A DNA stretch of 64,000 bases, taken from the NCBI RefSeq assembly GCF_054482525.1, contig NZ_CM137006.1, one strand, 5' to 3'. A model generated the notes under the pieces. That model had not been told where the DNA came from. It did not search any database and saw only the letters and a list, made by a program, of their open reading frames with translations. Numbering within the stretch: the stretch's first letter is position 1; the number at the start of each line of letters is the position of its first letter. This document shows positions 53,097-56,034 of this stretch, piece by piece. The translations under genes were made by a program, and so were the position numbers.

Positions 53097-54404
53097 CTTC
53101 TTTTCCTGGCTGGTATGGCAAGTGACGGAGACAAGAGAAACGTTTTAAGCTCAGTTATCTCCGCCATCACTTTCCACGAATGACAAGTAATTTTGCCTAT
53201 TTTAAAACCATGCAAAAGGCAGGGTAAAAGGAGAAAATTCGATCGAATCGATCGACAAAATCGATCATACATGATGAAGATTTTTTATCGAATCCATAAA
53301 AATAGTGACAGCTAACCGGCGTTGCAGGAACAGTCAGAAATGGGCGTTTGGGAAAGAGCCATAGCACTACGTCGTCGCTGACATAGAGGAACTGTGCTTT
53401 GTTGATAAGATCCTTTATACGGCAACCAATCCACTGGACAAAAGATGAACTACGTAATCACCGGGTTCTCACTGACGAAATACAGAAGTTAATGACACAA
53501 CTGTGCCATGTACCTTGTACAACAGCGGTGGAAAGCTCTCAGAACAATGGAATTGCAGAAAGGTGTTAAAACGATGAAAGCCTTCATACCCAAATCGAAT
53601 GTAAGAACGGCAGTAAAGACTGAATTGCGTAACCTTGCATTAGCTCGAGTATTACACTGCATAGTGTGCAGGGTTATCTCCCATCGAGAAAATATCGGCG
53701 CCAGCGAATAACGTCACCTTAGATGTAGCAGTTGCCAAATAGTGACTCAAGGGCGGGCTTACCGCATACACTGACACTTAGCGGATCGACAGAATATTAT
53801 TAGCAGATCATCCCTGAACGCAACGTAATTATCGTAATAAAGGCTTTTTCTGGCTACCAGGAAGATCTGACATGGCTCTGCTCTGGAACCAGGCCGCAGG
53901 AAGCATCAATCTGGAGTTTATCAGCTACTGGAATTCCGGTGTATTGGCAGCCCCTGATAATCACCTGACCCACGAAGAGCGCTCTGCTTTGCAGAAACTC
54001 TGGGGCGGTTTGGAGACAGGAGATGCCATTTAACGATTATAGGACGTTCTGATGAAGTCCATGATTTTACCTCCGCCTTAATTAACTGTTTTCTTTCTGA
54101 AGAAGAGATTGTCTGGTGGCAATCAGGTGGCATTTTCCCGGATCCCTGGCCCGCTAATATATCCCGGCTGAACTGACGATTAACGCGATATTGCAAATAT
54201 GGCATCTGAATCGATCATGATTTGGCGGCATCCATCTCCGTTCACAGTTTGGCATGCTTCCGATCATTGATTGGCATCCAGCCAGTCACTCCGGGAATTA
54301 ACTCTTTTCACCGCAGTCTCCATTGCCGTGTTTAAACCAATGGAGACGTCAATGTCCAAAAAGAGAATATCCAGGAGCACTATGGATACCTGTTTTAAGA
54401 TCCT

Positions 54405-54623
54405 TCAGCTCAAGTTCGACCAGAAGCTGGCTAACCGTTGTATCGGACTTGCAAAACACCAATGGGGATTGATCTCTATTTTGCGACACAGACGCATTAT
54501 CAATACATCGATGGTGCGATCAAATACCTCAGTGCTCTCACCGTGGATCAAATCCAGCAATTGCTCACAGATTAAGACTCGTCGGGAGTTTTGAGCCAAC
54601 GCCAGCAGTAAACCCATATTCAC
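54405..54623 (-). pseudogene. Fragment of a winged-helix (OmpR/ToxR-type) DNA-binding domain; probably a gene remnant
   Basis: 72-aa ORF containing ...EQLLDLIHGESTEVFDRTIDVLIMRLCRKIEINP, matching the recognition-helix and wing pattern of OmpR-family output domains; no receiver domain or full-length ORF around it. Confidence 0.4.
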
Positions 54624-54954
54624 CTTGAGTGAAATCTACAGGCTGTTGATGAGCATCAACCAGCACGTAACGGTCCGGGATCAAGTGTCCAGCCGTTAAA
54701 AAAACCACTCTACTACCCTGCTCGACCTAAGCCTCGGCGTTCAGCCGCCTGAACGGGTATGGCAAGGGTGAAAAGAAACAGCATCCCCAAAGTACCGACC
54801 AGACGACAGGATGATGCTGGAACAGAAAGCATACGCACCTCCCTTAGAATTAGACAGTGCGTACAGGATACGTAAGACAGGGTGACGGGGCGGCGATAAA
54901 CCCCGAACACATGGCAGAGTGTGACCACCGGATAATGCGCTCTGAGTTTCCCGA

Positions 54955-55250
54955 TTATCGGTAACTATTCAGGAAGTCTGATATCAAGAGCGCGGTAGCC
55001 TTTTTTAATATCGTATTTTGTTCCTCCAGACGACACACCTGCTTTTCCAGCTCACGAATACGTTGCTGCTCTGATGTGAGTGGTGCTGCAGCAGAAGGCG
55101 TGATCTCCTGACGTTCCCGTCTGAGCTGACGTACCCATGCCTCCAGAGTAGAGAAACCAACATTCATAGCTTCAGTAGCTTCCCGGTATGAGTAACCGTT
55201 ATCAACGATAAGTTGGGCGCATTCCAGTTTAAACTCAGGAGAGAAGGTAC
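54955..55250 (-). pseudogene. IS3-family transposase orfA remnant (frameshifted, no intact start)
   Basis: Translation ...[25 protein letters not shown] / [20 protein letters not shown]...[24 protein letters not shown] spread over two frames; HTH plus leucine-zipper OrfA pattern like IS911/IS3; the expected orfB downstream is degenerate. Confidence 0.7.
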
Positions 55251-55329
55251 GCTTTGTTTTCTTGTTGTTTTATGTTGTGGTGAGAATATCACCTTTAATC
55301 AGGTGGCCAAATTTACTGTGCCACTACAA

Positions 55330-55700
55330 AACGACATTCGTGCCGGATGCACTGGAGCAGGCAGTATGGGCCGTCGTCCATCTGGCACCATCCATCACAG
55401 TAATAAAGGTTCTCAGTATGTATCGCTGGCCTACATGCAGCGACTTAAGGAAGCCGGATTACTGGTATCAACAGGGAGTCCTGGCGACTCGTATGACAAC
55501 GCGATGGAGGAGAGCATCAATGGTCTTTACAAAACGGAGGTAATACACCGTAAGAGCTGGAAAAAACCGGACAGAAGTGAAACTGGCCACACTAACGTGG
55601 GTGGACTGGTATAACAATCGACGATTACTGGAAAGGCTGGGCCATATTCCTCCGACAGAAACAGAAAAAGCTTATTATGCCTCCATCGGAAACAATGATC
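55330..55700 (+). pseudogene. IS3-family transposase orfB C-terminal fragment (frameshifted), opposite orientation to the orfA remnant
   Basis: Translation HHSNKGSQYVSLAYMQRLKEAGLLVSTGSPGDSYDNAMEESINGLYKTE, then in another frame LTWVDWYNNRRLLERLGHIPPTETEKAYYAS; DDE integrase-core C-terminus. Confidence 0.7.
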
Positions 55701-56034
55701 TGGCAGCCTGAGTTCACAGATAAAATACTCTCCAGGAAAACCGGGATGGTTCACCGGAGTGTTAAAGTGTGGCTTAAAATTATGCAGTTGCCGCCTGGCG
55801 GTCAAGACTGTCGCTACAGGATAAATCGCTCCGGTGAAACACAACTGCGCAAATCACCATACTGTGCATACGTATTACCGTGAAGGAGATCGGTGAGTTA
55901 CGGGGTTATTGGGTGATCTCCTTCCATGAAAATACGCAGAGCACTTAAATCGCTGCTGGCGCGCACTAAAAACGTGTCAACCTGGTTCCATTAGCGTAAC
56001 ATCAAAGCGAGCACTTAAGAAGCAGAAGAGCAAC

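Follow-up and report, generated by a model that had tools for sequence, protein, structure and literature searches.

Among the pathogenicity islands of extraintestinal pathogenic Escherichia coli (ExPEC), 'Hek, P pilus' islands have been listed at pheU, pheV and leuX (PMC7545054). Here we describe a stretch of about 2.9 kb, positions 53097-56034, referred to below as the block. It lies within a 64-kb piece of DNA, referred to as the window, that belongs to the chromosome of an E. coli of uropathogenic type and carries an island at the tRNA gene pheU. We conclude with high confidence that the block is non-functional debris in this pheU-associated pathogenicity island of extraintestinal E. coli, produced by repeated insertion of insertion sequences (ISs) and by deletion. 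As part of the same, equally firm reading, the site of the debris is a recombination-prone joint between an ept/hek gene group and a focX-foc fimbrial group.

The relics found in the block can be set beside complete members of their families. A functional element of the IS3 family has two terminal repeats (5'-TG...CA-3'), a translatable orfA with an HTH domain, a programmed -1 frameshift site between orfA and orfB, and an OrfB with a complete DDE (rve) domain, and an IS21 element carries istA and istB between its terminal repeats. GTPases of the COG0523 family combine an N-terminal P-loop GTPase domain with a CobW_C domain, and response regulators of the OmpR type combine a receiver domain with a complete Trans_reg_C winged helix. 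Lastly, Salmonella IsrC, the namesake of the Rfam family RF01387, is an expressed island RNA that is induced in macrophages (PMC2330248).

Gene remnants in the block

In matching genomes, the annotation of the block by PGAP (NCBI) consists of exactly four features, all of them pseudogenes that are frameshifted or partial. Stop-to-stop frames of at least 35 codons were scanned against Pfam and NCBIfam. The Pfam matches were HTH_Tnp_1, rve (in the orfB pieces), Trans_reg_C and CobW_C, and NCBIfam added IS3 family transposase, IS2 TnpB and ZigA; the remaining tested frames matched neither collection. Thus, no intact gene was found in any frame of the block, as had been proposed in an earlier reading of the nucleotide sequence alone (the original prediction). 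That proposal would have been overturned by an intact gene in another frame or by a lack of transposase similarity, and neither was observed. The span it had given, 53100-55740, lies within the decayed block, whose actual run is 53097-56034.

The long frames not accounted for by the relics had no Pfam or NCBIfam match: a 97-codon frame antisense to cobW, a 108-codon frame antisense to the IS629-like orfB, a 107-codon frame across the IS21-like end, and a chimeric 83-codon frame at 54716-54964, whose signal-peptide-like part is the start of a RAQPRD-family gene. A scan for promoters and terminators did not depart from chance: promoter-like sites numbered 7 where 4.3 were expected, and terminator-like sites 2 where 3.1 were expected. 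An Rfam search of 52500-56500 at a permissive threshold returned the isrC match discussed below and one chance microRNA match (E 0.2), and nothing else.

To resolve the block into its components, sub-segments were compared with E. coli genomes by megablast and blastn and then aligned locally with fetched reference loci; the resulting map (Table 1) accounts for every piece. The homologies are far above chance, with BLAST E-values from 0 to 1e-45. Pieces of five different ISs are present. At least three further modules are compressed into the block, namely a metal-uptake cluster (TonB receptor, DUF4198 and CobW), a regulator of the OmpR type and an integrative conjugative element (ICE). All the items listed in the original prediction are present where it had placed them, and five relics are additional to it: the IS2-group orfB tail, the C-terminal cobW fragment, the IS21-family left end, the start of the RAQPRD gene from an ICE, and a miniature ISEc12. 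The block is a graveyard left by many events, not one joint.

Table 1. Positions, in window coordinates, of the relics and joint in the block, of its annotated pseudogenes, and of the tRNA and integrase genes of the island
Feature	Position	Strand	Remarks
tRNA-Phe	46889-46964		
Integrase gene	47162-48427		adjoins tRNA-Phe
hek/tia-upstream non-coding DNA	53193-53475	.	parted here from the hek/tia-like gene by the 122-aa open reading frame (52728-53096)
IS2-group (IS3 family) orfB C-terminal remnant and 3' tail	~53477-53829	+	strongly decayed, with indels and stop codons
cobW/ZigA-like (COG0523) GTPase fragment	53830-54176	+	codons 281-399 and stop of a 399-codon gene
IS21-family (ISSso4-like) left end	~54192-54449	+	repeated terminal motifs and first 23 istA codons; cut at 54449
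OmpR/PhoB-type response-regulator fragment, Trans_reg_C winged helix	54462-~54700	-	residues ~135-215 of ~235; frameshifted
ICE relic, RAQPRD-family gene start and upstream DNA	54728-54900	-	first ~35 codons with signal peptide (54832 to 54728); upstream DNA 54833-54900
Hybrid IS3-family element, left part	54893-55328	-	left inverted repeat TGTAGTGGCACAG... (end 55328), orfA, A6G slippery site, orfB start
Deletion joint	54893-54901	.	9-bp imperfect repeat/microhomology GCGAT(A/G)AAC; ~1.04-kb loss relative to AF3
Rfam RF01387 'isrC' match inside orfA relic	55151-55273	-	93.2 bits, full-length model; gathering score 39
IS629/IS1203-like IS3-family element, right 425 bp	55329-55753	+	last ~127 orfB codons, stop 55709-55711, right inverted repeat
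Mini-ISEc12 (IS21 family), internally deleted	~55866-55938	.	~70 bp; termini of 31 bp and 34 bp, 3 bp apart, outer ends outward
PGAP pseudogene, GTP-binding/CobW C-terminal fragment	53830-54176	+	
PGAP pseudogene, winged-helix fragment	54462-54700	-	
PGAP pseudogene, transposase	54968-55292	-	frameshifted, C-terminus missing
PGAP pseudogene, integrase core domain	55328-55711	+	

The left half of the block contains old non-coding DNA that is elsewhere found next to hek/tia: 53196-53475 is 89% identical to the DNA immediately upstream of the outer-membrane protein gene in strain RM10466, and 53193-53306 is 92% identical to the DNA 43 nt upstream of tia in strain IAI39. The IS2-like relic that follows has 76% DNA identity to a DDE transposase pseudogene of strain AR_0085, at the 3' end of the latter; tblastx recovers the matching peptides, and NCBIfam reports IS2 transposase TnpB (E 4.5e-7). 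The cobW fragment is the last third of its gene, with a frameshift near codon 337. Its 119 codons are 92-93% identical in amino acids to an intact CobW-family gene of strain O18, and the CobW_C part (Pfam E 4e-5; NCBIfam ZigA E 3e-11) is all that remains, the GTPase domain being absent.

The IS21-family relic consists of about 258 bp of left end, which over 54250-54449 shares 96% identity with an ISSso4-family element (its left end and the start of istA); with 23 codons of istA, it is far from an element with istA and istB between two termini. Next to it lies the winged-helix regulator fragment that had been noticed earlier (Trans_reg_C, E 2e-9; NCBIfam matches to VirG, PhoB, TorR and OmpR), which is 73% identical in DNA and 78% in amino acids to a 235-aa response regulator of O157 (aligned residues ~165-215). 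It has no receiver domain, and its last ~20 residues are gone. The RAQPRD relic is 72-82% identical in DNA to RAQPRD genes within ICE transfer clusters (tblastn 63% over 41 residues, E 1e-11), which suggests that a TIGR037xx-type ICE once fed into the island.

In the right half, two IS3-family relics face each other. The minus-strand relic has a left inverted repeat (TGTAGTGGCACAGTAAATTTGGCCACC...) near-identical to that of ISEc31. It is 79% identical to ISEc31 over 54956-55328 and 92.6% identical to IS911 over 54890-55011; with an ISEc31-like orfA and IS911-like sequence from the frameshift region on, this element is therefore a mosaic. Its orfA was described in the original prediction as frameshifted and lacking a start, and this is essentially right. 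The open frame at 54958-55269 (104 codons) matches Pfam HTH_Tnp_1 (E 3e-13) and the NCBIfam IS3 family transposase (E 2.7e-13), but 13 bp present in ISEc31 are deleted in both the window and strain AF3. With them an internal ATG of the reading frame has gone, and the frame is out of register with the homologous GTG start at 55292, so that despite its HTH_Tnp_1 domain the orfA is not translatable. The -1 frameshift site is kept, as an A AAA AAG heptamer at 55000-55006 that aligns with those of IS911 and ISEc31. About 25 codons of orfB precede the joint at 54893-54901, where the element stops; it thus has a left repeat only and no DDE (rve) domain.

The plus-strand relic, correctly recognized earlier as the C-terminal part of an orfB, is 93.4% identical to the last 425 bp (fetched locus 1501-1925) of an IS629-type copy in O157:H7, and its right repeat (...CCGGGATGGTTCA, ending in ...GGTTCA) ends at 55753. 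Its orfB piece matches positions 271-368 of the 369 in the NCBIfam IS3 family transposase profile (E 4e-30), as well as Pfam rve, and is frameshifted; the left repeat, orfA and the first ~885 bp, and with them a complete DDE domain, are absent. At 55400-55420, the conserved 'HSDKGSQY' motif reads HHSNKGSQY, a change that we take to be that of the second catalytic Asp of the DDE triad to Asn, and hence a further sign of decay.

Base 55328, the left end of the hybrid element, directly abuts internal position 55329 of the IS629-like element, with no spare base. An IS left end flush inside the IS629-like orfB indicates that the hybrid element inserted into the IS629-like one. The missing halves of the IS copies are found nowhere else in the 64-kb window. 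A search for TG...CA repeats around each relic had been proposed as a check; neither relic is flanked by such a pair, as each has one terminus only.

Past the IS629-like relic, the mini-ISEc12 matches both termini of an ISEc12 copy in strain AREA_R485 (fetched locus 5767-5797 and 8312-8345) and contains no genes. Separately, more than 1,200 E. coli genomes carry an unannotated ~65-bp version, 85% identical, between yfjI-like and yeeP-like GTPase/agn43 genes.

Joints and less-decayed relatives

No intact copy of the block was found among 5,426 E. coli genomes. As the comparison with the same island elsewhere proposed by the original prediction shows, relatives instead keep differing subsets of it, and these provide a view of what has been lost. 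Strain O18 has a TonB-dependent receptor gene, a DUF4198 gene and an intact cobW, and ~16 bp past the cobW stop codon comes the same IS21-like left end. In AR_0085, the IS2-like relic lies immediately upstream of the same TonB receptor gene; the O18 and AR_0085 loci are 97% identical. These arrangements imply that ~3.9 kb was lost in the window between 53829 and 53830.

Strain AF3 (one of 18 genomes of this type) retains ~1.04 kb that is absent from the window and includes an FxLYD-domain gene, a 3' fragment of a group II intron and a longer piece of the IS911-like orfB. In the window, the joint at 54893-54901 corresponds to position ...5651 of the fetched AF3 locus fused to 6683.... In AF3, the FxLYD-domain gene is intact and lies just past the RAQPRD-upstream DNA. 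At the left end of the hybrid element, AF3 lacks ~170 bp (about 55329-55498), that is, the same left end meets the IS629-like relic ~170 bp further in; to judge from these alignments, this fits an IS-mediated adjacent deletion that dates from the active period of the element. Newer insertions within the block are seen in other strains, namely ISEc12 in AREA_R485, with a 6-bp target duplication (TACCAG), and ISEc40 in three strains; the region is thus still receiving IS elements. Two losses that can be measured against relatives, together with one IS end flush inside another IS, lend good support to the proposal that earlier insertions and deletions reshaped the island.

The original prediction also envisaged a junction between two formerly separate modules, envelope genes and fimbriae. 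The neighbors of the ept-hek group do vary between strains: in RM10466 the group adjoins atoS, in strain 6817 it adjoins an integrase fragment, in IAI39 it is directly next to papG-II, and in AREA_R485 its neighbors are a cobW fragment and papX. The flanks are therefore separable modules. This part of the idea holds, but the block is not one two-module joint, since it contains at least three more modules and five ISs.

The comparison with other genomes shows the following events, whereas their order, and that the block is now not expressed to any purpose, are inferred. The IS2-like relic, the TonB-receptor/DUF4198/cobW cluster and the downstream IS21-like element once formed a contiguous stretch, and the ~3.9-kb deletion joined the IS2-like tail (53829) to codon 281 of cobW (53830). 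The IS21-like element was truncated at nucleotide ~258 and fused to the 3' part of the response-regulator gene (54449|54450). The regulator has lost its receiver domain and lies against the first ~35 codons of the RAQPRD-family gene of the ICE. A deletion of ~1.04 kb at a microhomology, which the AF3 lineage does not have, took the FxLYD gene, the group II intron piece and some of the IS911-like orfB. The hybrid ISEc31/IS911-like element entered the IS629-like orfB, and its own 3' part and the 5' part of the IS629-like element were lost later. The ~170-bp shift in AF3 at the same left end is the mark of the adjacent deletion.

Several points weigh against this reading. The order of events is not provable from extant genomes alone. 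A search for inverted repeats at the ends of the IS2-like relic, using its relative in AR_0085, gave only weak pairs of 14-20 nt; the right end of this relic is therefore not definable, and the joint 53829|53830 may be IS-end-mediated or a plain deletion. The carriers, in which the block is 99-100% identical, have diverged too little to test selection either way, and the isrC match leaves a small chance of a stable RNA from part of the orfA relic. Apart from these points, nothing contradicts the interpretation of the block as debris.

Alternative readings and the isrC match

A simpler history, and the one implied by the original prediction, is a single IS-mediated fusion of the envelope and fimbrial modules. 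The ept-hek and fimbrial groups do occur in other combinations elsewhere, and IS3-family ends lie at the right side of the block. A single scar would not, however, account for at least three extra gene modules, five IS elements and at least eight distinct joints, and the different subsets kept by relatives call for many separate events; we therefore consider it very improbable. The mosaic could also be an artefact of assembly or sequencing, with IS repeats collapsed or chimeric. IS-rich regions are often misassembled, and in the reference genome SCU-484 the foc genes have many frameshift calls. Against this, all 2.9 kb agree base for base in about a dozen complete genomes that were sequenced independently, 56 genomes are near-identical there, the foc genes of the window are intact open reading frames, and the joints are common to diverged relatives. 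The probability of an artefact is thus negligible, and repeated insertion and deletion remains the preferred reading.

The explanation that would give part of the block a function is exaptation, in which the retained left-end promoter would drive transcription of the orfA relic at 55151-55273 (minus strand) into a small RNA (sRNA) that resembles IsrC, binds Hfq and regulates island or core genes. The RF01387 match covers the full model and lies well above the gathering score (93 bits versus 39); the left inverted repeat and the 5' leader are near-identical to those of intact ISEc31, so that a native promoter, if any, would be kept; and the Salmonella RNA is, as noted, expressed from an island and macrophage-induced. 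Yet intact ISEc31 reaches 150 bits with this model, on the coding region of its orfA (fetched locus 1993-2115). In the cmscan alignment, the window copy has non-canonical bases at about 20 of the consensus pairs, that is, the score passes the threshold but the structure is not preserved. A simple consensus scan of the retained IS left end (55270-55330, minus strand) gave no promoter-like site. Conservation points the same way, as the window and AF3 are 97.0% identical in the orfA relic but 99.0-99.1% identical in the surrounding debris. Exaptation in this form is thus very unlikely. The higher score of ISEc31 indicates that the match is explained by shared IS ancestry and coding-sequence similarity, and on the basis of these alignments we read it as such, rather than as a small-RNA gene.

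Identity with the E. coli K-12 'isrC' upstream of flu was considered and rejected, as the K-12 loci match IS102/RF00124. What RF01387 describes is, in effect, the 5' end of a transposase gene of the ISEc31 type, and isrC calls in E. coli islands may be just IS copies. We regard as highly improbable the related proposal that the retained left end and the 5' region of orfA (55151-55330, minus strand) are still transcribed as an IsrC-like, Hfq-associated RNA that islands of uropathogenic E. coli have kept as a regulator; if it were true, the Salmonella IsrC family would represent recurrent exaptation of ISEc31-type transposase leaders. For annotation, the consequence is one of caution: because transposase genes of the ISEc31 type trigger RF01387, an isrC call in an E. 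coli island is not to be read as an sRNA gene unless expression data support the label.

The island and its relation to known systems

The gene order around the block was taken from SCU-484, a matching genome. Here, aspA-dcuA-cutA-dsbD-dicD is followed by tRNA-Phe (pheU) and a tyrosine integrase gene, and then by an eptA-like phosphoethanolamine transferase gene, a gene for a Hek/Tia-type outer-membrane protein, a hypothetical gene of 122 aa and the block. Beyond the block lie a 238-aa STM1630-family gene, a MarR-type focX/papX-like gene, sfaY and the F1C (foc/sfa) operon. The G+C content of the block, 43-51%, is above that of the two flanks (36-42%). The window thus combines a tRNA gene, an integrase, virulence genes (hek/tia-like and the foc operon), mobility relics in the form of the block itself, and a deviating G+C content (36-51%), as expected of a pathogenicity island. 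In SCU-484 (fetched locus 16245-25978), nearly every foc gene contains frameshifts, whereas in the window these genes are intact open reading frames and the F1C operon is intact; the frameshifts are probably sequencing errors in that assembly, not real decay.

Both immediate neighbors of the block are genes without a Pfam match. On the left, the 122-aa open reading frame (52728-53096, minus strand) has no NCBIfam match either. In IAI39 and RM10466, the equivalent of the DNA from 53193 onward starts ~43-46 nt upstream of the hek/tia start, so that the ~670 bp at 52526-53192, with the 122-aa gene, are either an insertion here or a deletion there. On the right, the intact 238-aa multi-pass membrane protein (56035-56751, minus strand), assigned to the STM1630 family by PGAP, sits between the debris and the focX/papX-like MarR gene and sfaY EAL gene (57244-58682, minus strand). 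In AF3, the STM1630-MarR pair is present without the fimbrial operon.

The stretch 53000-55900 is matched at 100% identity by about a dozen complete genomes, from human and canine extraintestinal isolates, and at least 80% of it is present in 56 of the 5,426 complete E. coli genomes; the left part of the block with its edge, 53097-54300, occurs in ~400 genomes. The block itself is ordinary: it is already annotated as pseudogenes in dozens of public genomes, and it is a textbook hallmark of pathogenicity islands. Its practical value is that of a lineage marker. The scars at 53829|53830, 54449|54450, 54893-54901 and 55328|55329 are unique, and could be used to trace the exchange of modules among Hek-pilus islands at pheU, pheV and leuX.

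Compared with known systems, each component of the block is recognizable and reduced. The relics related to IS629/IS1203, ISEc31, IS911 and IS2 share with these elements the TG...CA-type repeats, an HTH_Tnp_1 orfA, the A6G slippery site and an rve C-terminus of orfB; unlike functional IS3-family elements, no relic is complete, each has one terminus and none has the full DDE domain. In the COG0523 CobW/ZigA cluster of O18, an intact cobW lies downstream of the TonB-dependent receptor and DUF4198 genes, whereas here these two genes and the GTPase domain are deleted and the frameshifted C-terminal domain remains. With Salmonella IsrC (RF01387), the block shares a full-length match above the gathering score, but this match lies within a transposase orfA frame and the pairs of the model are largely broken. 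Finally, the setting as a whole resembles the ExPEC islands that combine Hek with a P or F1C/S pilus at pheU, pheV and leuX, in that tRNA-Phe and integrase, hek/tia-like and fimbrial genes, and many truncated transposase genes occur together; in other strains, the whole block or parts of it adjoin papX-pap. In contrast to the listed 'Hek, P pilus' islands, the fimbrial operon here is F1C (foc/sfa type) at pheU, and the exact combination of eight relics is particular to only about 56 of the 5,426 complete genomes.

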